This document shows positions 24,935 to 59,872 of a stretch of DNA of 64,000 nt, in pieces. This DNA is from a virus. The number at the start of each line of letters is the position of its first letter. Position 1 is the first letter of the stretch. The stretch covers positions 32,001 to 96,000 of IMG/VR virus record IMGVR_UViG_3300045988_122291. One strand, 5' to 3'. The notes under the pieces were generated by a model. That model was not told the DNA's origin. It saw only the letters and a list, made by a program, of their open reading frames with translations, and did not search any database. The translations under genes were made by a program, and so were the position numbers.

Positions 24935-27900
24935 CTATTCCTCCTTCGGCTCATAACCGTATCTGTAACTTTGTAACTCCATTGTACCATCATCTTCATT
25001 GATTGTCAAGATTTTTTGTAACTTGTGAGGGAAAATGCTGTTCTTGTAAGACTTGACACGGAACGTATCTTCACTGCGATAACCAGTAAGTACAAGACCC
25101 TGACCACGAGTAAACCAGCTTGTGTCCATGACAGTCTTTGTGCCGTCTGCGTGCTGTTCGCTAAATTGGGCTTTGTAAAATGGATAACTATGATTGTCGA
25201 AACGAGCCTGTACTACGTTGTTATTAGAATCAAGTACAGTAATAGTTGAATGAGCATCATTTCTTGCTATCACTGTACCCATAATTCGACTAAGCTGATA
25301 CTGTCGCCATTCACGCTTGCCGTACTTCTTAGTAACAAACACTGGCTCAGTAGGCAACTTATCAAATGTAGTAACATTGTATCTATCAGCGTCAATGCAA
25401 GTCAATTCATGCTCATTAGAGTAATAGGACAGTGCTTCAAAACTCCAATGATTAACGTTCATGTTAGGCAACTTATCACGCATACGAGCCTTGATAGATT
25501 GTTCGTTATACATCTTTAGGAACTCTGGCTGGTTAATATAAGCCTTTAGTTCTTCAGTGACGTTCTTGAATAGCTTCTCAAGCGACTTATCTACAACAAG
25601 GGTTCTGCCTTCCTCATCATACCACCAATCTACATTTTCTTCAAGTTGACTACGACACATTGAATCGAAGAAAACTAATGCTCGTTCGTCAAGCCAATAG
25701 ATTTTCTTTGATTTGAACTTGGGGTGTGTACCATAGAGGAATTGCTTTGAGCAAACGTATTTTTTGAAGGCAAGTGGCATGATAAGAGTGTTGGGTAGCT
25801 TACAGCCAATGCGTTGTAATTCAGCTAAATTAGCAGTGGTAAGCGTTTGTTTGCGAGGGGTAGAAAGGGCGAAGTACGCTTGCATGACGCGCATACGGTC
25901 AGGACAGAACTCATCAAAACAACCAGCCTTGATTAGTTGGATAAACTTGGATGGCGTGATAAGCGTACCTTGGTATGAGTTGCGTGTATAGAAGTCACGG
26001 AAAGAAGTGTAGGGGCGGTTTGCGATAATTTGTTGAGCAATTTCTGCGTTAATGGATGAAATACCGCCTAAACCGAAAAGAATAGTGTTATTTGCTTCAT
26101 CAACGCCAAAAGACATTTCTGCATGATTAGCTGGTGGTGGAGCAACAGCAATACCATTTTCTTTAGCTTTATATACAGAGCCAGCAATTTTACCATAGTC
26201 CGTAGTATTAGCCACATTATCACGTTCATCTTCTACGCCAGCTTGAGTAATTACAACAGCGGCGTTCCAATAAATCTTAGGGAACTTATAGTAAAGATTT
26301 AGTTCTTGCAAACATTCGGTGCTGTACTCGTTTGAATGGCTAAAGTCGAAGGCGTAAGATTTGGACATTTCAATTTGCACTTTCCATAGATAGTCAAGAA
26401 AAGCCTTGGTTCTGCCACATTCTGCGCCCTTACGGTACAATCTTTCTTCGGTTTCAGCAAGTGCTTCAGCATTTTTCTTCGCAACTGCCTTACGCGCCTT
26501 ATCCGATTCTTTTAGATTGAAGTTACATACACGCTCATCCATTAACACGCTCATCATGGTACTTTGAGCAATCATAAGACCGCAGTAGTTGCCAAGTAGT
26601 TCTTTAAGGATTTCTTGTTCTTCTTGTGGAATACCATAATTGGTCATATCTTGATACCATTCATTGATATTCTTGCGATAGCGAACATACATATCCATAG
26701 GCTGTTCACCATCAGCAACAGCAAGACGCATTAGACCGTTGGCAAGCGTAAGTTCAGTAAGATTCTGAGCACCGATTTTACGTAATGCTTCTTTGCCAGC
26801 CTTAGAGTCATACTGAAACGCAGAAGCCATAGTAGGCAACAAGTCCCACATTTCTTTTGTTGTCTTATCAAGTTTGTCATAAGACAAGTAATAATTGTAA
26901 GTATCTCTGAGCGAACCCTTATCTTCAATTTTACCGTTCTTTAACAGTAGTTCCATGCACGTTCTAATGGTTTGTAGACAGTCGATGGATAGCAGGTCGA
27001 ACTTGAGGTCGCCCGCATATTCAGCGTCATGCAAGTTAAATTGACTGCATACTGCACCGTTAGAAGATACCATGTAGCTACCTGTTTCTGTGTAATCGCC
27101 TTGAAGCACGTTAAGTGCGCCAGCGTGAACGCCAGAAGAAACAATCATACCTTCAAACGCAAGCGCAGTTTCAAGCAAGTCGTCATACTTCTTTACTTCT
27201 GCGACAAATTCTGGCACGGGTGCTCTGCCCTTCTTTTCATTGCCATATAAGCAATCTTTAAGAGAATAAATAGAGCCACGGACAGTAGGAATCAAAGACT
27301 TAATATATCCTACAGTATCAGAAGAAATACCCAATCCAGTTGCGGCACGTTCAAGTGCTGTTTTTGCAGACAACCTACCCCAAGTTACGCATTGGCAAGT
27401 TCTGCGCCAACCAAAATAGTCTTTAATAGCTTGAATAATTCGCTCTTTCTTAAAACTTTGAATATCAATATCACAATCGAAAATGCTTTCCGAACGAGCA
27501 ATAGAACAGAAACGCCACCAAGGGTAAAATTCTTTCGTTTCTGGGAGCATAGGGTCAATACCAGTGATGTTCAATAACTTATTAGTAAGATAGCAACCAG
27601 CCGAACCACGACCAATGCCAACATAACTATCGCCTTCAGTCCAAATAAGGTCTACTACCTTTTGCACAACAGTAAAATAATCTGCCATACATTCACCATC
27701 AAATGCTTCACCCAATCCTTTAACTTGCTCCATTTCAATGTTAATCTGAGCAAGATATTCTTTAATGTTCACTGGATGAATATTATTGTATTCGTACAGT
27801 CCTTTTTCTACTTGATAATAGTAGTATCGTTCATTAAGCGTACCTTCAGTAGCATAATATTTCACAAAAGGAAATTTATCATAATAGTCCTTATAGTAAT

Positions 27901-28864
27901 GCTTAATTTCAAATTCTGGAATCTTAGGCAATGCAGGTACACGAGTAGTCTTTTTAATGGTAATAGGCTGAACCTTGTCAGCAATCTGATTAGTCGTGTC
28001 AAACAATACGTCAATCATTTCGTCATTAAAACCACTTACATACATTTGTTCTCTAAGTTCTTGCGGAGTAAACAGATAGGTGGTCTGATAGAACTTCTCA
28101 GGTTCACGAGAATCACCGCCGTCTTTAGACTTTAGAAAAGCTGTGTGAATCTTTCTATCTTCTAGACGCATGAAATGAGAATCAGTAGTAACAATAATAG
28201 GAATGTTTAACTGTTCATGCAACTTCCACAATGAATTGTTGACCGTAATCTGTTCTTCGTTATCTTCCCAGCAAGGCTGACATTCAAGATAGAAATTATC
28301 CTTGCCAAACGTTCGCCAATTCCACTGAATAAATTCTTTAGCTTTAGCCGTATTGCCAGTAAGAATACACTTAGGCAAGAACCCGCCGATACATCCTGTG
28401 CTAACAGCCAAATGACCCTTGTCTTTGCCTACGACTTCTTCAAAGTCTGAGTAGAAACTTGGTCTACGCAACTGACCTTTATAAGTATAGCTTCTAAGCC
28501 ATGCTCTTGCAGATAATTCATACATTTGCTTTAGACCAATCTCATCCAATACAATTACCAAATAATGCCAATAGTATGGACGGTCGTTTTCACTAAAACG
28601 TAGATTATCTTCTTCTTCTGATAGTAGATAGAACTCATTGGCAAAGATATGCTGAAATGGACGCTGTTTGTCCAAAGCATTATATGCTTTTTCAAGTTCT
28701 ACATATCCACTTACAGTTTGGTGGTCTGAAATAGCATAACCTCTCAGACCATTTTCATAGCACCAGTTTACACATTTAGGGATATTACAAATAGCGTCAG
28801 CAAAACGAAGAACAGCGGAACTGTATTCACTGTGATTGTGTAGTGAAGTATATGTGTTAATCAT
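24935..28864 (-). CDS. dnaE: DNA polymerase III alpha-type replicative polymerase (PHP N-terminus)
   Basis: N-terminal PHP motif TSLHNHSEYS. At 1309 aa the length and layout fit the DnaE family. Confidence 0.75.
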   Translation of the reverse strand: MINTYTSLHNHSEYSSAVLRFADAICNIPKCVNWCYENGLRGYAISDHQTVSGYVELEKAYNALDKQRPFQHIFANEFYLLSEEEDNLRFSENDRPYYWHYLVIVLDEIGLKQMYELSARAWLRSYTYKGQLRRPSFYSDFEEVVGKDKGHLAVSTGCIGGFLPKCILTGNTAKAKEFIQWNWRTFGKDNFYLECQPCWEDNEEQITVNNSLWKLHEQLNIPIIVTTDSHFMRLEDRKIHTAFLKSKDGGDSREPEKFYQTTYLFTPQELREQMYVSGFNDEMIDVLFDTTNQIADKVQPITIKKTTRVPALPKIPEFEIKHYYKDYYDKFPFVKYYATEGTLNERYYYYQVEKGLYEYNNIHPVNIKEYLAQINIEMEQVKGLGEAFDGECMADYFTVVQKVVDLIWTEGDSYVGIGRGSAGCYLTNKLLNITGIDPMLPETKEFYPWWRFCSIARSESIFDCDIDIQSFKKERIIQAIKDYFGWRRTCQCVTWGRLSAKTALERAATGLGISSDTVGYIKSLIPTVRGSIYSLKDCLYGNEKKGRAPVPEFVAEVKKYDDLLETALAFEGMIVSSGVHAGALNVLQGDYTETGSYMVSSNGAVCSQFNLHDAEYAGDLKFDLLSIDCLQTIRTCMELLLKNGKIEDKGSLRDTYNYYLSYDKLDKTTKEMWDLLPTMASAFQYDSKAGKEALRKIGAQNLTELTLANGLMRLAVADGEQPMDMYVRYRKNINEWYQDMTNYGIPQEEQEILKELLGNYCGLMIAQSTMMSVLMDERVCNFNLKESDKARKAVAKKNAEALAETEERLYRKGAECGRTKAFLDYLWKVQIEMSKSYAFDFSHSNEYSTECLQELNLYYKFPKIYWNAAVVITQAGVEDERDNVANTTDYGKIAGSVYKAKENGIAVAPPPANHAEMSFGVDEANNTILFGLGGISSINAEIAQQIIANRPYTSFRDFYTRNSYQGTLITPSKFIQLIKAGCFDEFCPDRMRVMQAYFALSTPRKQTLTTANLAELQRIGCKLPNTLIMPLAFKKYVCSKQFLYGTHPKFKSKKIYWLDERALVFFDSMCRSQLEENVDWWYDEEGRTLVVDKSLEKLFKNVTEELKAYINQPEFLKMYNEQSIKARMRDKLPNMNVNHWSFEALSYYSNEHELTCIDADRYNVTTFDKLPTEPVFVTKKYGKREWRQYQLSRIMGTVIARNDAHSTITVLDSNNNVVQARFDNHSYPFYKAQFSEQHADGTKTVMDTSWFTRGQGLVLTGYRSEDTFRVKSYKNSIFPHKLQKILTINEDDGTMELQSYRYGYEPKEE

Positions 28865-33676: not shown

Positions 33677-33705
33677 AAAAAACAACCTCCTTTGTTTATG
33701 TATCA

Positions 33706-33734
33706 ATGATACCACAAAGGAGGTTGTGTGTCAA
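33706..33734 (-). promoter_or_regulatory. sigma-A-type promoter (TTGACA-17-TGgTATCAT) nested in a 14-bp anti-SD/terminator hairpin
   Basis: Spacer arm ACAACCTCCTTTGT (complement of 33714-33727) pairs with the SD arm ACAAAGGAGGTTGT (complement of 33682-33695). TTTTTT and the ATG follow. Confidence 0.6.
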
Positions 33735-33750: not shown

Positions 33751-34104
33751 TTATGAGATTTCAAGTGTGCCATAAGAGATTTCACCATAATCACCCAGAG
33801 AAGATAATTTTACGTCTACTTTGATAGAGAAACCATACTCATTACCTGTAGTAAATTCTTTGATAATTAAATGAACACCACCATTTTGACATTGCATTAA
33901 AATATCACAAGTCTCTCCCGTATTAGACATGAGTTTCGGTGAAAGCAAAAATCGTGAATTGTAATAGTCTCTAATGTAAATATAGCTTGTAGCAGGAACA
34001 TAAAATTCTCTATAAAAATCAGACCCCATATACAAGTCGTCAATCTTCTTATAAATCATAGCCCCACTTGTTTTCTCAATTTTTCCAGCTACAATCGCGT
34101 TCAT
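33751..34104 (-). CDS. hypervariable small protein, MNGIVTGK family, copy A (dispersed)
   Basis: MNAIVAGKIEKTSGAMIYKK N-terminus and ..GTLEIS C-terminus are shared with the array copies. A poly-G leader precedes it. Confidence 0.6.
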   Translation of the reverse strand: MNAIVAGKIEKTSGAMIYKKIDDLYMGSDFYREFYVPATSYIYIRDYYNSRFLLSPKLMSNTGETCDILMQCQNGGVHLIIKEFTTGNEYGFSIKVDVKLSSLGDYGEISYGTLEIS

Positions 34105-34185
34105 CGTACCACCTCCTTAGAGATGACACGGTTTACGTTACTGTGAAATGCCCCCCCCAAGTGAGCGCATAGTTTGGTAATTCAT
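34105..34185 (-). promoter_or_regulatory. leader cassette A: SD-led uORF 34138..34185 (MNYQTMRSLGGGISQ) containing G8 (34151-34158)
   Basis: AAAGGAGAAAATATT-ATG. With G8 the uORF stops at TAA 34138-34140. With G7 or G10 it reads ...SKEVVR and stops at a TGA overlapping the ATG of copy A (ATGA at 34101-34104). Confidence 0.6.
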
Positions 34186-34204: not shown

Positions 34205-34486
34205 TTAATCTTTCTTAGGCGTAGTATAAGACTTAGCGTTTTCACTGTCGCCCATACCAAGAACACCATTTTGTGTAGTCGGGTCAACAAGTGCGTTCCA
34301 TACGTTGACACAGACAAGGAAGAGACAGTAAGGATTACTGATAGTACCCTTCAGCACGTTGAGCACGCCTGCCCATGTGGTCAAATCTGCCGCTGTTAGA
34401 CCTGCGTAAGCAAGTGCAGTAGCGAATGCACCAAGAATTACATTTACCCAAAACGCATAGTTTTTAATTCTCACCTTTAGATTCAT
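34205..34486 (-). CDS. holin (LL-H / phage_holin_4-like)
   Basis: Three hydrophobic segments and a polar tail ..DPTTQNGVLGMGDSENAKSYTTPKKD. Lies immediately downstream of the endolysin with an ATGA-type junction. Confidence 0.65.
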   Translation of the reverse strand: MNLKVRIKNYAFWVNVILGAFATALAYAGLTAADLTTWAGVLNVLKGTISNPYCLFLVCVNVWNALVDPTTQNGVLGMGDSENAKSYTTPKKD

Positions 34487-36210
34487 TACTCTTCACTCCC
34501 ATACATACCCACTCTATCGTTAATAACAAGAACTCGTAGCAAATCTTCACTTAGGTCAAGACCCTTGCCATTACCCTTGAGATAGCCCTTATTCACGAGC
34601 TTAATGATAGTGTCCTTACCCCAGTCTGGAACTGAAGCAATGCTATCATATACCTTATTGTACTTAGCGTACACTTCTTCAGCTACATTGCCAGCAACCT
34701 TCTTAGCTTCGGTCTGAGCAATAGCTGTGGTTTCTGCTTTAGTCAAATCTTCCACTCCTTTAACCATGTTTAGGAAATTAGTCCACTGTTCATAATGTCG
34801 CACGAAGGGGTCTGGACAATTACCTACAATAAATGTTTTTGTACCTTGGCGCACAAGAATATATCCTGTTGGCACACTTACACAAGACACTTTAGTTGTA
34901 CGAGTTTTTACACTCTTCTGAACACCACCAATACTATAATTAGCTGTTAAGCGATCAATAGCAAGATAATCATAACGAGTGCTTCTACCTAATCGTGTTT
35001 TGTTAGTACGATACCCCTTAGTCGCGCAAACAGCTTGTACAACGTCTAAGTTATTTTGAATAGAAGAAGTATAAAGATGTCCTGCTTCGCAACCGTCTAC
35101 TTGTAAACATTCGTTCCAAAATACGTCATATTGGTGTTGATTCATTTCCAATAAATTATATTGGAAATGCTTATCTTTAAGCCACTGTTCACACCAATAG
35201 TAAAGGTCTGTGCCATAATTACGGTAACTTACACTACCATCTTTCTTGTTAGAAACAGTATAGTCAATCATTAGGTTATCAAGAATCTCTTTAACTCTAT
35301 CAATCTTGCGTTGTTTCTTAACATGAAACTCAATGCCACATACATCTTGGTAAGTTCCCTTCATATAATGTCCGTCACCTTGTACCCATACAAGGAATCG
35401 AATTTCATCATCAGTGAGAGGTAAACCAGACCCAATATACATAGCACCGTTTTTAACTAAGTTTTGTCGAGAGCCTGTAAGCATATCTCCCCATAGTTGC
35501 TCACGCCATTTATATGTTCCAGTCTTTTTATTAAAATTATTGTTTGCCGCCCACATACGATGATTAGAAGTTGCTTCAAGACCATGACAGCTTAGAACTT
35601 CAGCTTCATAAGGCTCAACCACGCTACTAACAGCGCCAAAAGATAGTCTATCAGTATTAGTGTCATACTGCATAACTTCTTCTCCAACCTTAATATCTCC
35701 AAGAGCCTTCCAACCTTCGCGTGTTAGAAGTTCGGTTGAATCCAAAGGTAAACAATACTTATGTGTAACATGATAGTGCATACATACATGCTTAATATCA
35801 ACCCCATACTGTTCCATAAGCCATTGCACGAGCTTTACAGTACGCTTCTGGGTTTCCATAGTAATTACATATTCGCCATTCTTCCAGTCGCTGCACATTT
35901 CAATACCAATGGAATTAACGTTGCGACAGCTATTGTAATAATAGCCTGTTTCACTACCACAATGCCATGCAGTATTAGCAAGGTTTACAGTCTGCCAAAT
36001 TTCGTTCTCATCAACAAAGAAATGTGCGCTTGCATTAAGCCCACTACAACGAGCAAAATAATCTGCATTGTTCTTTGCAGTATCGCCCTTGCCAGCAGTA
36101 AAGTGAATAACAATCCATTGAATCTTATGCTTTACGCCATTCTTTGTGCGACCATACATAAAATTGGAAGGATTGCATTCCTTAAATTGAAAATATGGTT
36201 TTTCTGCCAT
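34486..36210 (-). CDS. N-acetylmuramoyl-L-alanine amidase endolysin (Amidase_2/PGRP) interrupted by an intein; SLH-like C-terminus
   Basis: WIVIHFTAG, AHFFVD, AWHCG, NSIGIEMC and H-x5-K-x-C split as HYHVTHKY|intein|CPDPF. The C-terminal VPDWGKDTIIKLVNKGYLKGNG..LSEDLLRVLVI looks SLH-like. Confidence 0.75.
   Translation of the reverse strand: MAEKPYFQFKECNPSNFMYGRTKNGVKHKIQWIVIHFTAGKGDTAKNNADYFARCSGLNASAHFFVDENEIWQTVNLANTAWHCGSETGYYYNSCRNVNSIGIEMCSDWKNGEYVITMETQKRTVKLVQWLMEQYGVDIKHVCMHYHVTHKYCLPLDSTELLTREGWKALGDIKVGEEVMQYDTNTDRLSFGAVSSVVEPYEAEVLSCHGLEATSNHRMWAANNNFNKKTGTYKWREQLWGDMLTGSRQNLVKNGAMYIGSGLPLTDDEIRFLVWVQGDGHYMKGTYQDVCGIEFHVKKQRKIDRVKEILDNLMIDYTVSNKKDGSVSYRNYGTDLYYWCEQWLKDKHFQYNLLEMNQHQYDVFWNECLQVDGCEAGHLYTSSIQNNLDVVQAVCATKGYRTNKTRLGRSTRYDYLAIDRLTANYSIGGVQKSVKTRTTKVSCVSVPTGYILVRQGTKTFIVGNCPDPFVRHYEQWTNFLNMVKGVEDLTKAETTAIAQTEAKKVAGNVAEEVYAKYNKVYDSIASVPDWGKDTIIKLVNKGYLKGNGKGLDLSEDLLRVLVINDRVGMYGSEE
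34819..35754 (-). mobile_element. intein (312 aa, residues 153-464) with LAGLIDADG-type homing endonuclease domain
   Basis: Starts CLPLDSTELLTREGW (block A Cys). Block B ATSNHRMW. LAGLIDADG-like FLVWVQGDGHY and ECLQVDGCEAG. Ends TKTFIVGN followed by the +1 Cys (TGT 34816-34818). Confidence 0.65.
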
Positions 36211-36229: not shown

Positions 36230-36261
36230 AAGATAAAAGGGGAGAATATATCTCCCCTTAT
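36230..36261 (-). terminator. intrinsic terminator between the paralog operon and the endolysin gene
   Basis: Minus strand: AAGGGGAGA-TATAT-TCTCCCCTT followed by TTATCTT. Confidence 0.6.
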
Positions 36262-36502: not shown

Positions 36503-36898
36503 TTATTCAAAGTAGCCTATTTCAATTTTATCAAAATAGTCACTCAAATAACCACTTAAACTTCTAATGTGTATTTCATCTCGGTCGGAATTATACCAAA
36601 CTGAAAATAATGAGTAATTTTGCCTCGGATAGTTTTTGGGTGATACATAGAAATTATTTTCTTTGTCATCGCTACTAATATCTCCCATAAAATTAGTGGG
36701 GAAAATAATAACTTCTTTTCCATCTGAAGTTTCTCTGTAAAATCTAAAAAGAATATTGTTTTTCGGCGTGCGATATAAATTTGTATTGTATAGCGTTAAA
36801 TTGTAATCATTCGGCATATTCCATGATTGTGTTACATGAAACACCATAGTGTCTCCGACACTTTTAGTTTCCTGTTTATTAGTGACAATAGCATTCAT
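36503..36898 (-). CDS. hypervariable small protein, MNGIVTGK family, copy H (no leader of its own)
   Basis: MNAIVTNKQETKSVGDTMVF... ends ..KIEIGYFE. Follows copy B after TAA-19 nt-ATG with SD AGGCGGTGA. Confidence 0.55.
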   Translation of the reverse strand: MNAIVTNKQETKSVGDTMVFHVTQSWNMPNDYNLTLYNTNLYRTPKNNILFRFYRETSDGKEVIIFPTNFMGDISSDDKENNFYVSPKNYPRQNYSLFSVWYNSDRDEIHIRSLSGYLSDYFDKIEIGYFE

Positions 36899-36917
36899 AC
36901 TGTCACCGCCTTTGAAG

Positions 36918-37220
36918 TTACTTTATGGAAATTCGATAGAATTTTGCATTTAATCCTTCTCTGTTGTTTGTTGCCCCCATTATATTTCCATTTTCGAAAT
37001 ATAAATGAACCGATGGTGCGTCTGGACTGACAGAAAAAGTTTTTCCGTCCCATTTTCCAATAGAGAAATCGTAACTGTAAAGAATATAAACACAAGGGTC
37101 GTTCGCTTTTGGTGTTTCTATTACTGTTCCATGGTATTCTATCCAAAAAGAACTGTTGTACACTATTTCGAACTCTTTGCTTGTTCCTAATCCAATGGGC
37201 AAAGTAATAATTCCGTTCAT
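36918..37220 (-). CDS. hypervariable small protein, MNGIVTGK family, copy B (shortened N-terminal motif)
   Basis: Only MNGIITLPIG of the family motif is retained. Preceded by leader cassette B. Confidence 0.5.
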   Translation of the reverse strand: MNGIITLPIGLGTSKEFEIVYNSSFWIEYHGTVIETPKANDPCVYILYSYDFSIGKWDGKTFSVSPDAPSVHLYFENGNIMGATNNREGLNAKFYRISIK

Positions 37221-37286
37221 TTACTCTGCCCCCCCCAGTTTAATCTGAAGAATGCTCATTGCTCAAATTCCTTTCTGAGCAATGAG
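37221..37286 (-). promoter_or_regulatory. leader cassette B: uORF 37221..37259 (MSILQIKLGGAE) with G8 (37229-37236); its ATG lies in an 11-bp hairpin
   Basis: CTCATTGCTCA-GAAAGGAATT-TGAGCAATGAG hairpin (37255-37286). The uORF stop TAA (37221-37223) abuts ATG 37220. With G7 the stop would become ATGA-overlapping. Confidence 0.5.
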
Positions 37287-37291
37287 AAGGT

Positions 37292-37666
37292 TTATTCAAA
37301 AGTGCCGATTTCTACTGAAGAAAGGTTATTTCTCATTTTAAAATTATCAGAAACTCCCAAAGCAAGTCTTATGCTGGGGTCTGAATATTTTTTTACAACC
37401 TCTACCCAATCTGCTTCGTTAGGCGAAAGATATGTCGCAATCGTCGAACTGTCGTTATCTACCATTACAAAGCGCATTGAAATATAAGCTACTCTGTCAC
37501 CAAAAGATTCTATTTTTAAGAAATAAGGTGGCTCAAGATAAGAAGTATTTGGCACATAAAAATACATGAGTGCAGTTGCTTCTGTAGGAACACTGCCTAC
37601 TAAAGCAGTTTTCCATACCAAACTTCCAGCCTGTTTCTCTTGCTTACCAGTCACAATACCGTTCAC
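37292..37666 (-). CDS. hypervariable small protein, MNGIVTGK family, copy C (GTG start)
   Basis: (GTG)NGIVTGKQEKQAGSLVWK... ends ..VEIGTFE. Confidence 0.6.
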   Translation of the reverse strand: MNGIVTGKQEKQAGSLVWKTALVGSVPTEATALMYFYVPNTSYLEPPYFLKIESFGDRVAYISMRFVMVDNDSSTIATYLSPNEADWVEVVKKYSDPSIRLALGVSDNFKMRNNLSSVEIGTFE

Positions 37667-37818
37667 TCTTGTGCACCTTCTTTCGGTGCATACTTCTCAT
37701 TGCTCAAATAATTTAGTGGGAGACTATGCCCCCCCCCAGTTGAAACTGAGGTTGACTTACAAATACACATTTTTGTGTCTCCTTTGTTATGTGTTGTTTG
37801 TAATTTGAGCAATGGGAA
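37663..37818 (-). promoter_or_regulatory. leader cassette C: uORF 37663..37770 (35 aa) with G9 (37729-37737), in the coupled (ON) frame
   Basis: ACAAAGGAGACACAAAA-ATG. MCICKSTSVSTGGGHSLPLNYLSNEKYAPKEGAQE. The TGA overlaps the GTG start (GTGA). SD hairpin TGCACC-GAAAGAA-GGTGCA (37672-37690). Flanking arms CATTGCTCAAAT/ATTTGAGCAATG (37803-37814 and 37698-37709). Confidence 0.65.
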
Positions 37819-37821
37819 GGG

Positions 37822-38178
37822 TTAAGAAAATAATTCAAAACCTAAATTACTATATTCATTAGTAGTAATAGTATTGGTATTGAAATTTATGGTAAGCGTT
37901 GCAACTGAAGAGCTACCTATGCCATTAAGAGTGATAACCGATTGTTTATAAATAGCCCCTGTTTCATATCCAGAACTGCTATTTATAACAATCGCATATT
38001 TCTCTTGAGGAAAAATCACACAATAGGTCGTATAATAACTACGATATGTTTCAGTAGCAATAACTGAATATTTATCTATATCAGTAATCGTTGCATTACC
38101 ATTGTAGTATTGCCGAACAGCAGAAGTTGGCACTTTACCACCAGTTGTTTCAATCTTACCCGTTACAATTCCGTTCAT
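37822..38178 (-). CDS. hypervariable small protein, MNGIVTGK family, copy D
   Basis: MNGIVTGKIETTGGKVPTS... ends ..LGFELFS. Confidence 0.6.
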   Translation of the reverse strand: MNGIVTGKIETTGGKVPTSAVRQYYNGNATITDIDKYSVIATETYRSYYTTYCVIFPQEKYAIVINSSSGYETGAIYKQSVITLNGIGSSSVATLTINFNTNTITTNEYSNLGFELFS

Positions 38179-38332
38179 CCAACAGCACCAACTTTCTTCA
38201 GTGCTGTTCCATTGCTCAAATTAAAGTTTAGGAGAATGCTAACGCATTGCCCCCCCCCAACTGAAGTCAGGGTTGACTGAATGTTAAACATAAATGTTCT
38301 CCTTTTGTATAGTTTTTATTTGAGCAATGGAA
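38175..38332 (-). promoter_or_regulatory. leader cassette D: uORF 38175..38291 (38 aa) with G9 (38250-38258), in the coupled (ON) frame
   Basis: CAAAAGGAGAACATTT-ATG. MFNIQSTLTSVGGGQCVSILLNFNLSNGTALKKVGAVG. The TGA overlaps the ATG (ATGA). Hairpin AACAGCAC..GTGCTGTT (38181-38208). Flanking 15-nt arms at 38318-38332 and 38207-38221. Confidence 0.65.
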
Positions 38333-38337
38333 GGGAA

Positions 38338-38691
38338 TTACCAATAAATGAAAACTGCCATATTCGTTCCGACATATGTTAATGTCATTGCTGAGAAATC
38401 GACAGTATACAATGCTGAAGTTGAAGTAGCGGGAGAATAAAAAGTATAGACAGTATCGGTAATTATTTTTCTATCTTCCCAATCAACGGGTTGAGGGAGA
38501 TATATGATATATTTTCCTTGTGGATATATCTCATAGCATCCGTGCGAACTTATATATGTTCTAATGCACCTTAATTTAGATATATCGAAAGGAGAATTTG
38601 TTTTATCAATAACAGGTCTTTCTATGCTTGTAGGCACAGTATCACTTATACTTTGCTTTTCTTCAATTTTACCGCTAACAATCCCATTCAT
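38338..38691 (-). CDS. hypervariable small protein, MNGIVTGK family, copy E
   Basis: MNGIVSGKIEEKQSISDT... Confidence 0.6.
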   Translation of the reverse strand: MNGIVSGKIEEKQSISDTVPTSIERPVIDKTNSPFDISKLRCIRTYISSHGCYEIYPQGKYIIYLPQPVDWEDRKIITDTVYTFYSPATSTSALYTVDFSAMTLTYVGTNMAVFIYW

Positions 38692-38838
38692 ACAGTCACC
38701 TGCTTTCGGTGACTAACATTGCTCAAAAAGGACTTTCGCCCTATTAGGAAGTTATTGCCCCCCCCAAGTGAAACATAAGTTCACTCAGAGAAAACTTGAT
38801 ACGCATGGTATCACTCCTTGTTATTTAATTGAGCAACG
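38692..38838 (-). promoter_or_regulatory. leader cassette E: uORF 38744..38806 (MRIKFSLSELMFHLGGAITS) with G8 (38758-38765), uncoupled (OFF) frame
   Basis: CAAGGAGTGATACC-ATG. With G9 it would read ...GGGNNFLIGRKSFLSNVSHRKQVTV and stop at a TGA overlapping ATG 38691 (ATGA). SD hairpin GTCACC-GAAAGCA-GGTGAC (38695-38713). Flanking arms at 38829-38838 and 38717-38726 with one G-U. Confidence 0.65.
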
Positions 38839-38860
38839 TGTGTGAAGGGTGGTTAAGTGG

Positions 38861-39202
38861 TTAGGAAATTTCGAGAATGCCAAGTTCTAATGAGTTCATA
38901 CATTCGCTAAAAGGAATGAAACGTGAAGCAGAATTAGTTCGAACCATACAAGCGCCTTGCCACTGGCTACAATAAATGTTGTCTGGTAAATCCAGTGTTA
39001 TGTGCCTTTCATCATCTCGCGAAATCACGAAATTTTTCACGCAAATTAAAGTAATATTATTACTTTTATCTATAATACGAATATACTTCAAAGCATTATA
39101 GTCAAAAGTAAAATTTGATTGACTTAAATCAATCGACTGTTCACTCTTAAACACCATACTACCAGCAGTCTTTTCAATCTTGCCAGTTACTATACCATTC
39201 AT
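38861..39202 (-). CDS. hypervariable small protein, MNGIVTGK family, copy F
   Basis: ATG at 39202 (the track starts at GTG 39205). MNGIVTGKIEKTAGSMVFK... ends ..LGILEIS. Confidence 0.6.
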   Translation of the reverse strand: MNGIVTGKIEKTAGSMVFKSEQSIDLSQSNFTFDYNALKYIRIIDKSNNITLICVKNFVISRDDERHITLDLPDNIYCSQWQGACMVRTNSASRFIPFSECMNSLELGILEIS

Positions 39203-39314
39203 CACAAGACCTCCTTTCGGAGGTTGCCAATCCTGTTGCTCAAAGGAAAGGCATTTCCAATCATTAGGTTAGAACAATGCCCCCCAAGTGAATGAGAGTT
39301 TTAGTCTTAATCAT
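39203..39314 (-). promoter_or_regulatory. leader cassette F: uORF 39264..39314 (MIKTKTLIHLGGIVLT) with G6 (39280-39285), uncoupled (OFF) frame
   Basis: TAAGGAGAATACAT-ATG. With G7 it would read ...GGHCSNLMIGNAFPLSNRIGNLRKEVL and stop at a TGA overlapping the start (UGAUG). SD hairpin ACCTCC-GAAA-GGAGGT (39209-39224). Confidence 0.65.
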
Positions 39315-39325: not shown

Positions 39326-39754
39326 TTACATATTGTCTACAATTTCGTGCATCTTATCTTCAAGATGAATCGCAACGAACGATAGTAACGCCCATGCACA
39401 ACAGAAGAATAGATTACACTGTCCAAAAAAGAAGGTAAACGGTAAGTGGCTGTAATCCCACACATCCATATGCAGGATGTTATTCAGCACTACACCAGTT
39501 AATCCTTCAAGAACTGTGATAACCACGGTTCCAATTACTACTTGTTGCCATTGCTTGAATTGGTGTTTTCCTTCGTTTAGCAGTCCTACAATAACGAAAC
39601 ATAGCCCGCCGAGAACTGCCATAGTCCAGTTGGTTGGTTTGCCTTTCCAAATGGTTTCGATGGCGAAGTAAAGCATACCACCCATCACACCAAACAGCGC
39701 ATGGACAAGTATTGAATTTAGTTTATGCTTCATAGCTTTAAGCCAACTTAGCAA
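39326..39754 (-). CDS. integral membrane protein (about 4 TM)
   Basis: Four hydrophobic helices. Lies directly upstream of the paralog array in the same operon. Confidence 0.5.
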   Translation of the reverse strand: MLSWLKAMKHKLNSILVHALFGVMGGMLYFAIETIWKGKPTNWTMAVLGGLCFVIVGLLNEGKHQFKQWQQVVIGTVVITVLEGLTGVVLNNILHMDVWDYSHLPFTFFFGQCNLFFCCAWALLSFVAIHLEDKMHEIVDNM

Positions 39755-40418
39755 GCATAGCGTCCATCTGAGCCTTTGCAGAAGCCAATACCTTAACTTC
39801 TTGTTCTGCCAGCTTACCAGTTAGTTCAGTTGCAAGGGTTACTGCCTTAACAGCGTCCTTATCTTCACAGCTATTTACATACTGTTTTAGCAAGTTACCG
39901 TGTGTAGTCAGCTTAGTGATGAGCGTTTGCATACTCACGTACAAGCTGACAATATCAGCCTTTGGATAAATTACACATTCCTTGCCGTCAGCATGGTAAG
40001 GAAATTCTTCAACGCCCATAACAACTGCATTAAAGATATTACCAATGTTGGCTTGGTCGTTTGCTGTTAGGCTGAAATGTTCATCACCATAAGAAGTCTT
40101 AACGTCAACGCCAGCATAAATAGTTTGCTCAACTGAATTGTTAAGAGAATTGATAACTTGACCACGAAGTTCTTCAATAGTCGGCTCATAAGGAGTAGGA
40201 GCTTCTTCCTTGTCCCAGTGAACCGTATTACCTACGCATTCCCAAATCTTATAATCTGACTTCTTGAGAGTGCAAAGTTCTTCGTCAATGTCAGTGACAA
40301 ATCGAATTGTATCACCAAGTTCAATATCATGAACCTTATCAAGCGTAATGTAGCAACGTTCGGAATTGATGATACCTTCTACATTTTCATATGTTTTCTT
40401 ATTAGTAATTAGTTTCAT
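39738..40418 (-). CDS. DUF4376-like (tail-fiber-associated domain) protein
   Basis: The central segment INSLNNSVEQTIYAGVDVKTSYGDEHFSLTANDQANIGNIFN resembles the DUF4376 domain of fiber and fiber-assembly proteins (from memory). Confidence 0.4.
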   Translation of the reverse strand: MKLITNKKTYENVEGIINSERCYITLDKVHDIELGDTIRFVTDIDEELCTLKKSDYKIWECVGNTVHWDKEEAPTPYEPTIEELRGQVINSLNNSVEQTIYAGVDVKTSYGDEHFSLTANDQANIGNIFNAVVMGVEEFPYHADGKECVIYPKADIVSLYVSMQTLITKLTTHGNLLKQYVNSCEDKDAVKAVTLATELTGKLAEQEVKVLASAKAQMDAMLAKLA

Positions 40419-40816
40419 TAAACTACCTCACCTACTACTTGAACAGTAAAATCTACTGAAGGCTTTGTAGAGCCAGAAGTTCTTAGAGTCAAAGTATTCG
40501 TACCTGTTGTGCCGTAATCTGCAAGCAATGCAAATGCAGTTTTCTGATTAGCCGCCGCTGTTGCGTCAGAACTCGGCAGAAGATAAATAATTGGCTGATA
40601 GCGCATATTGATAGCAAGACCACTAATTGTTTGTGTTTGCTGATAAACACCGCCACTTGAACTCCAACCACCAGAATAGAAAGTAGCTGTACCAAAAACG
40701 GTCTTGCCTACTTCAAGGTTTTGTCGTGCGCCTTGGGCAGTTGTTGCACCAGTGCCACCGTCAGGGATTGGAACAGGGTAAACGTAACCTTGCCCTGTTA
40801 TTGCTCCATAACCCAT
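40418..40816 (-). CDS. short tail-fiber-like protein
   Basis: The N-terminal PIPDGGTGATTAQGARQNLEVG motif is characteristic of phage fiber N-termini. Confidence 0.45.
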   Translation of the reverse strand: MGYGAITGQGYVYPVPIPDGGTGATTAQGARQNLEVGKTVFGTATFYSGGWSSSGGVYQQTQTISGLAINMRYQPIIYLLPSSDATAAANQKTAFALLADYGTTGTNTLTLRTSGSTKPSVDFTVQVVGEVV

Positions 40817-40921: not shown

Positions 40922-42013
40922 TTAATTATTTAGAATATCAATCGTCCGTGCTTCATACAGCTTTTGCCATGCCTGAAAATCGCGGTCTACTGCATTTTCC
41001 TTGCGTTCAAGTAAACCCAAGCTATCCCACACAACATCAACTTGTGCAAGACCAGACCAAAGTTCAGCTTGCTTCATAATCTTATTGTTCCATTGCTCAA
41101 ACTCTGTGTCTGTGCCGCCAGTAGCATCATTATCTACAATAAGAACAACATGATTAACGCCCAACTTTAACAGTTGATTCCTGCGTTGTAAGCCAAGCTG
41201 TGAGCCGAACATAGCGACTGCTGTTGATTGTGAGCCGAGAAAGCTATGCAATTTAAGCACCGCTTTCTCGCTTTCGGCAATCATTACAGTACCAGTACGT
41301 TCTATTTCATATTGGTTCTGCGCCAATCCATATAGCACTGCGTTAGTAGGGAACTTATAGATAGTGCCATCCAACAGTTGCAAAGGTCGATATTTACCAT
41401 TTATTGCATTTTCACCCCAATACCTGCAACGAATCCCTACTAAGTCATAATTTTCATTGAACACAGGAATGGTCGTTCCCCATTCTCGTCCATACCAGCC
41501 GATACGAAACAAGGCTTGCGTTTCTTCGCTTATGCCTTCATTCACCCATTCTTGGCATGGTACATTGGGAATAGCGTCAAGAATAGAAATATCATAAGTC
41601 GGCAATAAACTACCGCCGTTTCGTACTGTAATGAACTTCTCAAGTCCAGACCAATCCGTGATATTAGGGTTGGCTACACGCTGAACTTGAGAAGATTCAA
41701 TACCAGTAACATCAAGAATGTAATTTACTGCGTCTACGAAAGAACAAGGTTGCTTTAGTAGAGATAATCGTGTTTGGGTTAGTGAGATAATGTCGTATGA
41801 ACGTCCAGCGGTTAAGCCAAGATAAATGCTTGTATCTGGATAAAATAGTAACTTTGCTGAACCATCTAAAGCATTAACATTCTTATCGCCAGTAAAGTAA
41901 ACAATTTCATTTGGGTGTTCCATGTAGATAGGAATACCCAACGACTTCATTATCTTTTTGTGGTCGTCAATAGTTAATCGGGCTTTCAGAGCCTTAGTAT
42001 TTATCTTAGCCAT
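40922..42013 (-). CDS. dnaG: DNA primase (Toprim domain)
   Basis: Toprim Glu in VMIAESEKAVLKL and DxD in VVLIVDNDATGG. Confidence 0.55.
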   Translation of the reverse strand: MAKINTKALKARLTIDDHKKIMKSLGIPIYMEHPNEIVYFTGDKNVNALDGSAKLLFYPDTSIYLGLTAGRSYDIISLTQTRLSLLKQPCSFVDAVNYILDVTGIESSQVQRVANPNITDWSGLEKFITVRNGGSLLPTYDISILDAIPNVPCQEWVNEGISEETQALFRIGWYGREWGTTIPVFNENYDLVGIRCRYWGENAINGKYRPLQLLDGTIYKFPTNAVLYGLAQNQYEIERTGTVMIAESEKAVLKLHSFLGSQSTAVAMFGSQLGLQRRNQLLKLGVNHVVLIVDNDATGGTDTEFEQWNNKIMKQAELWSGLAQVDVVWDSLGLLERKENAVDRDFQAWQKLYEARTIDILNN

Positions 42014-45152: not shown

Positions 45153-46262
45153 TTATGAATAAGCTATTTCAAGCCCTTTTTTCAAGATGTTAACACTTGC
45201 GTTAATATCTCTATCATGTTTAGTATGGCACTCAGGACACTCCCAAGTACGAACATCCAGATTCTTAACCAGAGGATTCTTGTAACCACAGTAGCTACAA
45301 GTCTGGCTACTTGGGTACATAGTAGGGACACTGATTACCGTATTACCATACCATTCACCTTTATACTTGAGCATAGCAAAGAATTTAGACCACGAAGCAC
45401 TTGCGATTGACCGCGCAAGATTATGATTACGCATCATACCTTTTACATTCAAGTCCTCTATGCAGATAGTTTGGTTTTCGCGTATCAGCATAGTTGACTG
45501 CTTTTGTAAAAAGTCATTTCTTTGATTAGTAATCTTTTCGTAGATACAAGCTAACTTAATACGTTGTTTATTACGATTGTTAGAGCCTAATTGCTTACGA
45601 GAAAGACCGCGCTGTGCTCTAATGAGTTTACGAGCAGATTTCTCTAAAAACTTTGGATTAGGAATTTTGTTACCGTTACTATCTGTATAGAAATCTTTAA
45701 TTCCCACATCAATACCAACAGTTCCATTTGCATTGTTCATAAGCTGTGGCTCAAAATCAACATTGAGAACTACGAAATATTTGCCAGACGGTGTTCTTTC
45801 AACAGTGACATTGTTAATATGCCCAACTTCCATAGATTGTTTAATTTTTATATATCCCAATTTAGGCAATCTAATATATTTCCCTACAATGCGAATAGTA
45901 TTTACATGGTTAATCGTTCTATAAGACTGATAATTGTTATGTTTATTCTTAAATTTTGGATATTTAGACTTTTTAGCAAAGAATTTTTTATAACCTTTAT
46001 CTAAATCTCTTAAAGATTGCTGCAGAGCAATAGAATCCAATTCTTTAAGAAAATTAAATTCTTCTTGTTGTTTAAGTGCCGTTAGCATGGCACAAGTTCC
46101 ACTATACCCAACACTAATGCCATTTTTATAGGAATCTCTACGCATAACCAGACCTTTATTATACACAAGTCTGCAACCGCCAAAAATTCGATTTATTAAA
46201 TTTTTCTGTGTTTTATTGGGATAGACCCTGAATTTAATACCTTTTTGCATATAATTTCCCAT
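45153..46262 (-). CDS. tnpB: TnpB (IS200/IS605-family RNA-guided endonuclease), no tnpA adjacent
   Basis: N-terminal [29 protein letters not shown]. RuvC D in [11 protein letters not shown] and E in [11 protein letters not shown]. Zinc finger CSYCG..CPECH followed by [10 protein letters not shown]. Confidence 0.85.
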
Positions 46263-51006: not shown

Positions 51007-51387
51007 TTATTCCAAAAATCCAAAAGTTAAAGATTTTAATAAACCAAAAGAAGAAGTTCCTGCTATATGTTGTTTCTCCCAATATATATCGTCATCATCA
51101 CGTGTCCGGAAGCGGTAAAATTTAATACTTTCATAAATTGAATCATTTTCACCCAAAAGTTCAAAAGAACCACCTACACTGAATGAATTTATAGACAGAT
51201 AAGTATATGCTATTCCTGTTGGTTGTTGCATACCTATTCTTAGCGTATATTTATAAAATCTTCCAACCAAATCATAATATCTTAATTCATACGGAGAGTT
51301 GTCATTCGCAACATCCCATACAGCAACTTCGTTAAATACCAAACTTCCGGCTGGCTTTTCCATTTTACCAGAGATAATTGCGTTCAT
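51007..51387 (-). CDS. hypervariable small protein, MNGIVTGK family, copy G (dispersed)
   Basis: MNAIISGKMEKPAGSLVFNE... ends ..LTFGFLE. Preceded by a poly-G leader. Confidence 0.6.
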   Translation of the reverse strand: MNAIISGKMEKPAGSLVFNEVAVWDVANDNSPYELRYYDLVGRFYKYTLRIGMQQPTGIAYTYLSINSFSVGGSFELLGENDSIYESIKFYRFRTRDDDDIYWEKQHIAGTSSFGLLKSLTFGFLE

Positions 51388-51465
51388 GCAATCACCTCCT
51401 TACTGCTTACAGCGTTAAGCCGTATGCCCCCCCCAAGTGGAAACAAAGTTTACTAATTTAAACAT
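51388..51465 (-). promoter_or_regulatory. leader cassette G: uORF 51415..51465 (MFKLVNFVSTWGGHTA) with G8 (51427-51434), uncoupled frame
   Basis: AAAGGAGGGCATTTTT-ATG. With G7 or G10 it would read ...WGGIRLNAVSSKEVIA and stop at a TGA overlapping ATG 51387 (ATGA). Confidence 0.6.
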
Positions 51466-51504: not shown

Positions 51505-53043
51505 TCACTTTAACTTAGGCTTTGGGATTGATACAAATTTATTGTAAGAATCGCACACAAAAAAATCGGTATTACGCATAGTGCTCATATCAAAATAATG
51601 GAATATCTTGAGTTTACGGTCTTGATATTCGCCAAATCGTGACTTGTGAATATATGTAATACGGTTAGGAACAAGCGTGTTATTTAGCCCCTTTTCTCTT
51701 TGGTGCTTAATAAACGGCTCTACCAGCTTCATTTCTTTCGGTCTGTCTTTAGCGGCTAATACAACACAACCAAAGTCAACCTTAGTTCGTGAAGCCTTAG
51801 AAGAAGAAATACAGCTTTCGTCAGGGAAGTCTAATTGCTTTTCATTGCCATTGGTCTGCGTCATTGTAAGCAAGCCAACATTGTACTTCTCTGCATATGC
51901 TTTAAGGTCTGTCGCCAGTCCTCTTAAAGCCATATCTTCACGCGCTTGCACGCCTGTATTTGCACGATACTCCATAGACAATGCGCTGTTAAGCATCATA
52001 TAGTCGAAACAGCCATACACTGCGCCATAGCCTTCTACGCACTCTTTAATCTTACGGTCGATATTAGCCGATGTAAAATCAGGCATATCAATCAATCTAA
52101 GGTCGCAACTCTTGATAATCTCTGCGGCTTTGATAACTCGCTTGCGTTCTTCATCAGTACAGTTACCCATAGTAATTGTGTTTGACGGTACGTTAGCTAT
52201 ACACGCAAGAAACATAGGTTGCATCTCTGTACGCTGTGCCAACTCAGTGTGGATAAAGAATCCTGCGCCTTGATAATTGGGATTAGGAATAAAGTCTTGC
52301 GCTTCATCGTCCCAATATTGGTCTACACAAAGACCGCAAATATCGGCTACAGCCATACGAGTTTTACCCACAGAACTTGGACAAGACCGCATAAACAAAT
52401 GTCCACGGTTAAAACCATGCGCTAATTCTGTTTGATAAGGTGAATATAAGAACGCGCCATAAGACGGCTTTTCATCAAATTCAGCAAGCAATCCTTCAAT
52501 ATCCTCGCCTACTGTCATCTCTTCACGCACATACTTGCTATCGTACTTTGTCCTTAGGCTGTTTGCTTTATACTCAACAGCATTAAGAATCTGCTCAATA
52601 GTTAGCTTTTCCAGCTTTGCGCGTTCATCAGATTCATTACCAAGCGTATCATAAAATTCTTTAATATCCACGCCTTGCTCGTCAAGTTCTCTTAGCAGAG
52701 CAAACTTGCGGATAACAGAATAATAATACTCATAGTTATCTGGGTTTGCCAATTCCTTTACTGTGTAAATAAAGTCAAGGTAATTATTGTCTCGACAAAC
52801 TTCCATTTGTGGAACATGATTCTGAAGTACAGATTCAATTTCAACTTCTGTAACTTCGCCTACGCCACTTCTTGCCAGCTTTGCAATACACACAAAGATG
52901 ACTTGATGAAAGTTTGATGGAGCAAATGTAGCTTTATCCAACGGATATTCTGGTAATGATAGCAACTGTGGTCGCTTCATTAAACTACCAAGCATCAACG
53001 ATGCAAGGTTTACATCATAAAGTTCCATCGGAATCAACCCCAA
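51505..53043 (-). CDS. dnaB: DnaB-like replicative helicase
   Basis: N-terminal LGSLMKRPQLL pattern. Walker A SCPSSVGKT. RecA-like C-terminal domain. Confidence 0.7.
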   Translation of the reverse strand: MGLIPMELYDVNLASLMLGSLMKRPQLLSLPEYPLDKATFAPSNFHQVIFVCIAKLARSGVGEVTEVEIESVLQNHVPQMEVCRDNNYLDFIYTVKELANPDNYEYYYSVIRKFALLRELDEQGVDIKEFYDTLGNESDERAKLEKLTIEQILNAVEYKANSLRTKYDSKYVREEMTVGEDIEGLLAEFDEKPSYGAFLYSPYQTELAHGFNRGHLFMRSCPSSVGKTRMAVADICGLCVDQYWDDEAQDFIPNPNYQGAGFFIHTELAQRTEMQPMFLACIANVPSNTITMGNCTDEERKRVIKAAEIIKSCDLRLIDMPDFTSANIDRKIKECVEGYGAVYGCFDYMMLNSALSMEYRANTGVQAREDMALRGLATDLKAYAEKYNVGLLTMTQTNGNEKQLDFPDESCISSSKASRTKVDFGCVVLAAKDRPKEMKLVEPFIKHQREKGLNNTLVPNRITYIHKSRFGEYQDRKLKIFHYFDMSTMRNTDFFVCDSYNKFVSIPKPKLK

Positions 53044-58048: not shown

Positions 58049-58244
58049 TATTTACCTCACTTATCAAATAAGTAATTCAGACAAAAGTCTGTTGTGTAAC
58101 CTTCGCCAATGTTGTAATAGCTTTTTACATTTAGCACACTGATTTAATGCCAAACAATAGAGCAAAGGACTAAGTTAAACATCCTTTGGTATTATAACTA
58201 AAACAACGTAGTCATTAAAGACTTAGGCTAATTAGAACTCTTAT
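58049..58244 (-). ncRNA. candidate IscB omega RNA scaffold
   Basis: A 196-nt non-coding gap lies immediately 5' of iscB, which is where IscB omega RNAs are encoded. No covariance model was run. Confidence 0.35.
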
Positions 58245-59205: not shown

Positions 59206-59336
59206 TTATGGAGGTGAAAAACCATGAAGAACGAAGCCTTCTATGGCACAGATATGGTTGGCACAAGACTTAGGACTTTAACCTAAACGAACAGTTTTGG
59301 AGACTGTCATGCTAACAATTACATCAGTCTTGCATA

Positions 59337-59411
59337 TGGAGCGCTATGGCGTAATCGAAACGCTATCTTCAGTTTGGAAAACTGAGGTTCTTACCGTTAA
59401 ACTAATAGCGC
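59337..59411 (-). tRNA. tRNA-Gly (anticodon UCC), CCA encoded
   Basis: Hand fold: acceptor GCGCTAT/ATAGCGC, anticodon stem TCAGT/ACTGA, loop TTTCCAA, T arm with TTCGATT loop. Confidence 0.7.
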
Positions 59412-59527
59412 AAATTGTCCCGCGACCCAAAGGTACGTCATGTGCACTTGACTTGTTTTCCACTGGGAATCGCAGTACAGTCATGAGCTAAACCGCAATA
59501 AACGTGAACTTAACAAACGGGGAACAT

Positions 59528-59603
59528 TGGTAGCGATGGTGCGATTCGGACGCACGAAATCATGGAGTCAAAGTCCATTGCCTTACCGCTTGGCTACACC
59601 GCT
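59528..59603 (-). tRNA. tRNA-Gln (anticodon UUG), CCA encoded
   Basis: Acceptor AGCGGTG/CATCGCT, anticodon stem ATGGA/TCCAT, loop CTTTGAC, T stem GTGCG/CGCAC. The variable region looks 1 nt long in my fold. Confidence 0.65.
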
Positions 59604-59845: not shown

Positions 59846-59872
59846 ATTTGATTGGGGCAAATGCCCCATCAC

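Follow-up and report, generated by a model that had tools for sequence, protein, structure and literature searches.

We analysed 64,000 nucleotides (nt) of a virus genome, positions 32,001 to 96,000 of IMG/VR record IMGVR_UViG_3300045988_122291 (hereafter, the window), which encode eight paralogs of one small protein of 100-131 amino acids (aa), all on the minus strand. Six of them form a tandem array in the order F, E, D, C, B and B' (36503-39202). The other two lie outside the array, paralog A 3' of the holin gene and paralog G 3' of a DnaB-like helicase gene. The paralogs share a consensus N terminus, MNGIVTGKIEK, and a C terminus, ...G(T/Y)(L/F)E, around a highly variable middle. The subject of this study is the short leader open reading frame (ORF) with a run of G residues that precedes seven of the eight paralogs, B' being the exception. 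We refer to each leader, its G tract and the paralog start behind it as a unit, lettered after its paralog (Table 1).

Long G runs in the window are confined to these leaders. All seven runs of at least six Gs lie inside a leader of this gene family, and overlapping matches to GGGGGG number 21, compared to 4.5 expected. None of the regulated paralog ORFs has such a run inside it, so that every tract sits in a separate leader ORF. The leaders have AAGGAG-type Shine-Dalgarno (SD) sequences 8-9 nt from the leader ATG. An earlier note on this DNA had described five units, B to F. All five are real, and the count rises to seven because units A and G have the same build.

We recomputed the leader frames with a script that lengthened and shortened every tract by up to two Gs. 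The coordinates and codon counts that the earlier note had obtained by hand for units B to F were all reproduced. In 7/7 window units, one tract phase ends the leader at a TGA overlapping the paralog start as ATGA, GTGA or TGATG (TTGA also occurs when relatives are included), and the other two phases stop 1-8 codons past the tract. Gain or loss of one G shifts the leader stop by 50-70 nt. Both central claims of the earlier note, that the end of the leader ORF depends on tract length and that the stop/start overlap typical of translational coupling arises in one phase, hold for all seven window units and for the single-tract units of approximately 30 related contigs, with the exception of one decayed two-tract unit in the contig designated L142. 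As assembled, units C and D are in the coupled phase, the TAA of unit B abuts the paralog ATG, and units A, E, F and G are in a short phase. As statements about the sequence, the states assigned earlier to C and D (ON), E and F (OFF) and B (abutting) were correct.

Codon 2 is Asn (AAY) in all paralogs, which by itself guarantees an ATGA overlap. What this does not guarantee is a +1 frame open over 39-89 nt, with the other two frames closed almost at once. In dinucleotide shuffles, the chance of an open +1 frame was approximately 0.21-0.43 per unit, and the product over five units was approximately 0.002. The earlier description of the pattern as very unlikely by chance was therefore overstated for the window alone, and becomes strong when the relatives are added (11/12 distinct units, P approximately 1e-5). 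Counting as distinct only those single-tract units of the window and its relatives that are less than 80% similar (n = 12), the +1 frame is open in 11, against an expected fraction of 0.28; in 10 units it is open and the other two frames are closed, against an expected fraction of 0.18 (P approximately 1e-5 to 5e-6). The single exception to the open +1 frame is the decayed two-tract leader. Frame 0, the paralog's own, is closed upstream in 12/12 distinct units, so fusion of leader to paralog is impossible.

Nearly every unit also has a hairpin with a purine-rich SD in its 3' arm, ending 2-8 nt before the paralog start. The same geometry recurs in at least nine different stem sequences, including CACC/GGTG, CCTCC/GGAGG, CAGCAC/GTGCTG and CACCTCGC/GTGGGGTG. 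Predicted folding energies of the seven window start regions average -11.7 kcal/mol, compared to -4.7 kcal/mol for 62 other genes (Mann-Whitney p = 2.4e-5). The start region of the leaderless paralog B', which serves as an internal control, is unstructured (-3.8 kcal/mol). The hairpin stems covary, and the downstream initiation region is predicted to be occluded on its own. Since both OFF-phase stops fall 5' of the start-site structures, only the coupled phase would send ribosomes through the hairpin. A second candidate structure, pairing the G tract with an upstream pyrimidine run, can be drawn in most units, yet its stability does not exceed that found in shuffles with the tract preserved (z about -1), and it was discarded.

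One paralog of the relatives also has neither leader nor tract. A tight 12-bp inverted-repeat hairpin of -16 kcal/mol holds its ATG in the right arm (L001 9976-10010; L129 approximately 11005-11040; L144 approximately 9025-9060), and the paralog starts 8 nt past the stop of the tract-controlled unit C gene. This arrangement suggests that its translation is coupled to the upstream unit C gene.

Internal array units have, in addition, a long-range helix of 10-15 bp, whose left arm lies just past the stop of the previous gene and whose right arm lies 4-15 nt past the early leader stops. Two pairs of this helix covary, and three arm mismatches are G.U pairs, valid only in the sense RNA. The corresponding inverted-repeat arms measure 12-19 bp and are 85-102 nt apart around the leaders; such arms also flank whole genes. 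The helix is absent from the first array unit, unit A and unit G. Candidate roles for it are those of a processing site, an insulator and a barrier to scanning ribosomes. The (F/Y/P)LSN ending that the earlier note found in the long-frame leaders is indeed shared, but its source is a conserved DNA/RNA motif, TTTGAGCAAT, which forms the right arm of the inverted repeat, and not a conserved peptide.

To compare tracts, we used approximately 30 metagenomic contigs of phages of approximately 110-114 kb and two more distant IMG/VR relatives. The approximately 30 relatives have a common gene order of membrane protein, array, 67-aa gene, Amidase_2 lysin, holin and unit A. Tract length is polymorphic in each of the six unit types that were observed at least 12 times: unit C orthologues have G8, G9 or G10, those of units D and E have G7, G8 or G9, and those of unit A have G8 or G9; an MKTKTLI-type unit has G6, G8 or G9 and an MNLRFN-type unit G7 or G8. 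Throughout the phage clade the tracts are kept at G6 or longer. Contigs L129 and L130 differ over 9,259 nt by one substitution and a sole indel, the unit E tract (G7 versus G8). Over 5,596 nt, L133 and L136 have no substitution and again a sole indel, in the unit D tract (G7 versus G8), and the unit C tract is G8 in L001 and G10 in L002. The members of these pairs come from different samples and assemblers. A tract that is essentially the sole indel between near-identical contigs is the signature of a hypermutable contingency locus at the DNA level. Gene callers agree with the frame predictions on the relatives, in that a long leader of 35-42 aa is called only in contigs with a coupled-phase tract. 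The earlier note had raised the concern that the tract counts might be assembly errors and all units might share one frame; the units do not all share one frame, and orthologous tracts differ between near-identical genomes. The window's own tract lengths were matched only by assemblies of probably the same sample (membrane-protein and holin look-ups). It should also be noted that one circularly overlapping assembly (ERZ1749166 NODE_36; L126 position 1 and the end of L140) breaks exactly at the unit B tract. Within its 55-nt overlap the two ends of the contig disagree on this tract, with G7 at the start and G8 at the end, which may reflect mixed tract lengths in that sample.

We read the anatomy and frame logic of these units, the open frame conserved across diverged units, the polymorphic tracts and the structured starts with their compensatory stem changes as poly-G phase variation that probably acts through translational coupling from the leader ORF, giving combinatorial expression of a hypervariable set of proteins. 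We put the probability of this reading at roughly 0.6; its effect on expression is deduced from the frame logic and the start hairpins. The mRNA would run, 5' to 3', from a strong SD and ATG into the leader ORF, through a G6-G10 tract approximately ten codons in, across the 39-89 nt spacer (which in internal array units includes the right arm of the long-range helix) and the SD hairpin to the paralog start. Polymerase slippage would add or remove at least one G and so set a new leader frame. In the ON frame, ribosomes would read on past both helix arm and SD hairpin as far as the TGA overlapping the start, unmasking that start and being delivered to it. In the other two frames they would stop 5' of the structures, and the start would stay buried (OFF or low expression). 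As each paralog has its own tract, a phage population would hold many combinations of expressed paralogs, a form of bet-hedging. Control of translation by coupling is a proposal from sequence, and frequent, reversible switching within one population is suggested on the same basis; the proteins may be receptor-binding tips or have another host-interaction function.

Several observations weigh against this interpretation. The distinct units are paralogs, so the 12 trials behind the frame statistics are not fully independent. Tract lengths are assembly consensus and may include homopolymer errors, and the A/T runs of at least 7 that serve as controls number just 0-4 per comparison. In units A and G the OFF stops lie only 22-36 nt from the start and may still open the hairpin, making these units leaky. 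The B-type module has two possibly permissive phases: G8 places the TAA against the paralog ATG, G7 gives ATGA, and G9 gives out-of-frame reading across the gene. Furthermore, the 125 tract observations divide into 29 coupled, 92 short, 3 read-through and 1 abutting. The MKTKTLI-type unit (0/21), unit A (0/12) and the G-type unit (0/4) were never seen coupled. Units whose coupled length is G9 are often ON, and units requiring G7 hardly ever. Nearly everywhere G8 is the modal length, so some units may be regulated differently or kept off.

Table 1. Positions of the paralogs, leader ORFs, G tracts and RNA elements in the window.
Feature	Position	Strand	Remarks
Paralog A	33751-34104	minus	117 aa
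Paralog B	36918-37220	minus	100 aa; ATG 37220
Paralog B'	36503-36898	minus	131 aa; no leader, no tract; 17 nt past B
Paralog C	37292-37666	minus	124 aa; GTG start
Paralog D	37822-38178	minus	118 aa
Paralog E	38338-38691	minus	117 aa
Paralog F	38861-39202	minus	113 aa, from ATG 39202
Paralog G	51007-51387	minus	126 aa; MNAIISGKMEK...
Unit A leader	34138-34185	minus	15 codons as assembled, short phase
Unit A tract	34151-34158	minus	G8; coupled phase G7 or G10
Unit A SD hairpin	34105-34130	minus
Unit B	37221-37286	minus	short module type; tight inverted-repeat hairpin 37255-37286
Unit B leader	ATG 37259	minus	ATG within right arm of hairpin; TAA 37221-37223 abuts ATG 37220
Unit B tract	37229-37236	minus	G8; at SD distance from paralog start
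Unit C leader	37663-37770	minus	35 codons from ATG 37770, coupled phase; TGA overlaps GTG 37666 (GTGA)
Unit C tract	37729-37737	minus	G9
Unit C RNA elements	37673-37814	minus	left arm 37803-37814, right arm 37698-37709 (12-bp helix); SD hairpin GCACCgaaagaaGGTGC 37673-37689
Unit D leader	38175-38291	minus	38 codons from ATG 38291, coupled phase; TGA overlaps ATG 38178 (ATGA)
Unit D tract	38250-38258	minus	G9
Unit D RNA elements	38182-38332	minus	left arm 38318-38332, right arm 38207-38221 (perfect 15-bp helix); SD hairpin 38182-38207
Unit E leader	38744-38806	minus	20 codons as assembled, short phase; G9 gives 39 codons and ATGA at 38691
Unit E tract	38758-38765	minus	G8
Unit E RNA elements	38694-38839	minus	left arm 38829-38839 (ACGTTGCTCAA), right arm 38716-38726 (TTGAGCAATGT); SD hairpin 38694-38714
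Unit F leader	39264-39314	minus	16 codons as assembled, short phase; G7 gives 37 codons and TGATG at 39200-39204
Unit F tract	39280-39285	minus	G6; coupled phase G7
Unit F hairpin	39209-39224	minus	ACCTCCgaaaGGAGGT; SD buried, 6 nt before start
Unit F right-arm-like motif	39234-39244	minus	TTTGAGCAACA
Unit G leader	51415-51465	minus	16 codons as assembled (MFKLVNFVSTWGGHTA), short phase; SD AAGGAGG 8 nt 5' of ATG
Unit G tract	51427-51434	minus	G8; coupled phase G7 or G10
Unit G hairpin	51373-51396	minus	contains paralog G start
Terminator-like hairpin	33682-33727		3' of paralog A
Terminator-like hairpin and T run	36237-36259	minus	closes F-to-B' array and 67-aa gene, before endolysin gene

The position of the early stops also fits a polarity model, in which an early leader stop exposes structured RNA to cleavage (for example by RNase III at the helix) or to Rho termination, so that tract phase sets the mRNA level and not initiation. 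The 10-15 bp helix around the leader of internal units, with its two covarying pairs and sense-only G.U pairs, is what such a model would use, and its right arm lies just 3' of the two OFF-phase stops. There is also a precedent in a 5' untranslated region (UTR) repeat tract that acts through an RNase III hairpin (PMC12721329). However, the first array unit, unit A and unit G have no such helix yet keep the frame logic and the SD hairpin, and pure polarity does not need the stop/start overlap. We consider it unlikely that polarity is the explanation in place of coupling. The two models are not exclusive, and polarity at the RNA level may operate alongside coupling.

RNA polymerase can slip on runs of 8-10 identical bases. 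If transcriptional slippage or ribosomal frameshifting at the G run produced a constant mixture of short and long leaders, the differences in DNA length would be noise or neutral. In favour of this, most units have a modal length of G8, whatever their coupled length. This explanation does not account for the DNA tract being the sole indel between contigs of different samples and assemblers that otherwise agree over 5-9 kb, nor for called gene lengths that follow the DNA tract differences. Furthermore, no frame yields a leader-paralog fusion. Slippage at the RNA level as the basis of the pattern therefore seems to us quite improbable.

We give a similarly small chance to the tracts being neutral hot spots, or assembly artefacts, in junk leaders left by tandem duplication and without a regulatory role. 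The units are paralogous, their shared features could be inherited, and homopolymers are error-prone. Against this, the sequences between tract and start have diverged to less than 80% similarity, with indels, and nevertheless keep one open frame and early stops in both others. The start hairpins are kept through compensatory changes, and the tracts stay at G6 or longer across the clade.

A short leader ORF followed by an SD-sequestering hairpin is the classical layout of leader-peptide attenuation of the ermC/cat type, where a paused ribosome opens the SD hairpin; the G tract would then merely encode Gly-Gly-Gly and its length would be incidental. The leader peptides share just the Gly run, though, and attenuation gives no reason for an open +1 frame kept up to the start codon, nor for tracts that are the most variable sites of the genome. 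We regard it as very improbable.

That an inverton or shufflon, inverting DNA or shuffling cassettes at the inverted repeats, is the real switch instead of the G tract is extremely improbable: 12-19 bp repeats do flank leaders and whole genes, and leaders recombine at or near the tract to give chimeric leaders and cassette loss (window and L142), but all of the approximately 30 related contigs have one leader orientation and no poly-C run on the sense strand, genes within 9 kb match no recombinase family, the arms are just approximately 90 nt apart, and their three mismatches are G.U pairs valid only in sense RNA. A promoter-spacing model was dropped because promoter-like sites are not enriched (17 found, compared to 22 expected) and none places the tract in the spacer between -35 and -10.

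Repeat-slippage phase variation is a central bet-hedging device of bacterial pathogens, and in phages it has been recognised only recently, with repeats inside ordinary coding sequences. Coupling by stop/start overlap and the unmasking of structured starts are classical (trpE-trpD and MS2 coat-replicase; secM-secA and ermC-type leaders). The units described here resemble those systems in their ATGA/TGATG overlaps and in an SD sequestered in a hairpin that ribosomes translating the upstream ORF would open. Upstream frames are fixed in those known systems, whereas here a hypermutable tract would decide whether the overlap is reached. The poly-G tracts of Campylobacter phages (Sorensen et al. 2021, Cell Rep 35:109214) reportedly lie inside the coding sequence of the regulated gene and truncate it directly. 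Poly-G phase variation as such is known in those phages (Sorensen 2021, as cited in PMC12823448 and PMC11868660). The likeness is in phage poly-G runs of changing length that give subpopulations differing in expression of host-interaction genes, which here is a deduction; the differences are that our tracts are in a separate leader ORF, that seven members of one family each have their own switch, and that the hosts are unrelated.

In T-even and other phages, contingency loci are mostly poly-A runs within ordinary genes such as agt and rIIA (Gomez, Barrick and Waters 2025, bioRxiv, PMC12633550). There too, simple repeats in a phage give reversible frameshifts as bet-hedging against host defences, but without a dedicated module of leader ORF, hairpin and stop/start overlap (PMC12633550). 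Neisseria opa (CTCTT repeats) and pilC (poly-G) offer the closest parallel in having many paralogs, each with its own tract and independent switching into combinatorial repertoires, as is generally known (PMC3745409, PMC5320596); their repeat is in the 5' coding region of the gene itself (signal peptide) and not in an upstream ORF. In Haemophilus influenzae hmw1A, a DNA repeat is likewise transcribed into leader RNA and acts post-transcriptionally together with a conserved RNA helix, but the heptamer repeats of its 5' UTR tune RNase III processing of a hairpin as a rheostat, with no leader ORF and no frame logic (PMC12721329). Mu Gin and P1 Cin inversion and diversity-generating retroelements also provide phage-encoded alternative host-interaction proteins in one population (general knowledge; PMC12823448), by site-specific inversion or mutagenic retrohoming and not by repeat slippage. 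Neither a recombinase (among genes within 9 kb) nor a reverse transcriptase was found near our locus. A full-text literature search, and a search by terms inside a 2025 review of phase variation, returned no repeat tract working through a coupled upstream ORF.

A broader proposal, which we put forward tentatively and at somewhat less than even odds, is that leader ORF, poly-G tract, SD hairpin and stop/start overlap form a dedicated, portable regulatory cassette of a clade of gut phages of approximately 110 kb, which makes an on/off translational switch out of slippage, is placed before each member of a fibre-tip-like family of small, hypervariable proteins and allows 2^7 or more displayed combinations of host-interaction proteins per genome, a class of phase variation not found in the literature searched. 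If this is true, it would be a purpose-built phage switch module that works through a leader ORF and coupling instead of gene truncation, multiplied over a paralog array into combinatorial states. Tract lengths would also serve as a marker for phage population states in metagenomes. The family is uncharacterised and fast-evolving, and probably acts at the phage-host interface in the human gut.

The proteins themselves had no match among Pfam, PHROGs, NCBIfam or PDB sequence profiles. AlphaFold models of paralog C (predicted local distance difference test score, pLDDT, 77) and paralog F (pLDDT 81) are both beta-sandwiches, and neither had a Foldseek match to PDB or BFVD at E<=1e-3. The top-ranked matches, while not significant, are T7 gp17 (E 0.085), fibre heads of adenovirus, siadenovirus and reovirus (E 0.2-0.7) and phage tail-fibre C termini. 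The MNGIVTGKIE N terminus is conserved at the protein level, with synonymous sites free to vary, and is predicted to be disordered, which suggests a docking tail. Just upstream are two small fibre-like genes, for proteins of 132 aa (40418-40816) and 226 aa (39738-40418). A receptor-binding role is a lead that we hold at somewhat less than even odds, and a role in anti-defence or in some other interaction with the host is equally open.

A profile search found the family only in gut-metagenome Caudoviricetes contigs, and an exhaustive search of 1.84 billion representative proteins gave 74 clusters (50% identity), all stand-alone proteins of approximately 60-144 aa. A Megablast search of 50,697 phage records with the locus returned nothing. 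No relative was found in a scan of GTDB genome contigs, hence there is no prophage or host assignment. A DNA pattern search of IMG/VR with TGGGGGG-N(20-50)-TTGAGCAA returned nearly all chance matches, with L066 the sole relative.

Some leaders of the relatives have two G8 tracts 46 nt apart before one gene (L004 5554-5660; L066 minus strand 1354-1460), and a two-tract leader would give nine phase combinations. In L142 (approximately 100-260) the second tract of such a leader has decayed to an interrupted G5. The unit F leader of the window (39202-39314), when aligned with L001 7352-8001 and L142 6870-7000, is a chimera whose 5' half matches the leader of a 131-aa TTG-start paralog of the relatives and whose 3' half matches the leader of the next unit. 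One cassette has therefore been lost through recombination at or next to the G tract. L142 has a similar leader chimera, independent of that in the window.

Genes for a PHP / DNA polymerase III alpha-like polymerase, a PRK08624 / Toprim primase-like protein and a DnaB-like helicase flank the lysis cassette and array (24935-28864, 40922-42013 and 51505-53043, minus strand). Since replication genes surround them, the array lies in a replication/lysis region and not in a classical tail module. The phage-encoded replicase may be relevant for slippage rates. The Amidase_2 endolysin (34486-36210, minus strand) is 574 aa long and contains a 311-aa insertion (residues approximately 154-464) that is missing from its 263-aa orthologue in L001. 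The first residue of the insertion is Cys (C|LPLDSTELL), and it ends in ...FIVGN followed by Cys. While Pfam flagged no Hint domain in it, a Cys-bounded insertion has the signature of an intein; a putative intein in a lysin would be unusual.

An Rfam scan at the gathering threshold gave no match at the leaders, and elsewhere returned only a HEARO RNA and seven tRNAs. The HEARO RNA (RF02033, 100 bits; 58091-58265) adjoins a 418-aa RRXRR and HNH protein, IscB-like, at 56792-58048 (minus strand), and a separate IS605 OrfB/TnpB-like gene is at 45153-46262, so the phage carries two mobile elements of the RNA-guided-nuclease type. The seven tRNA genes are clustered at 59262-63283 (minus strand).

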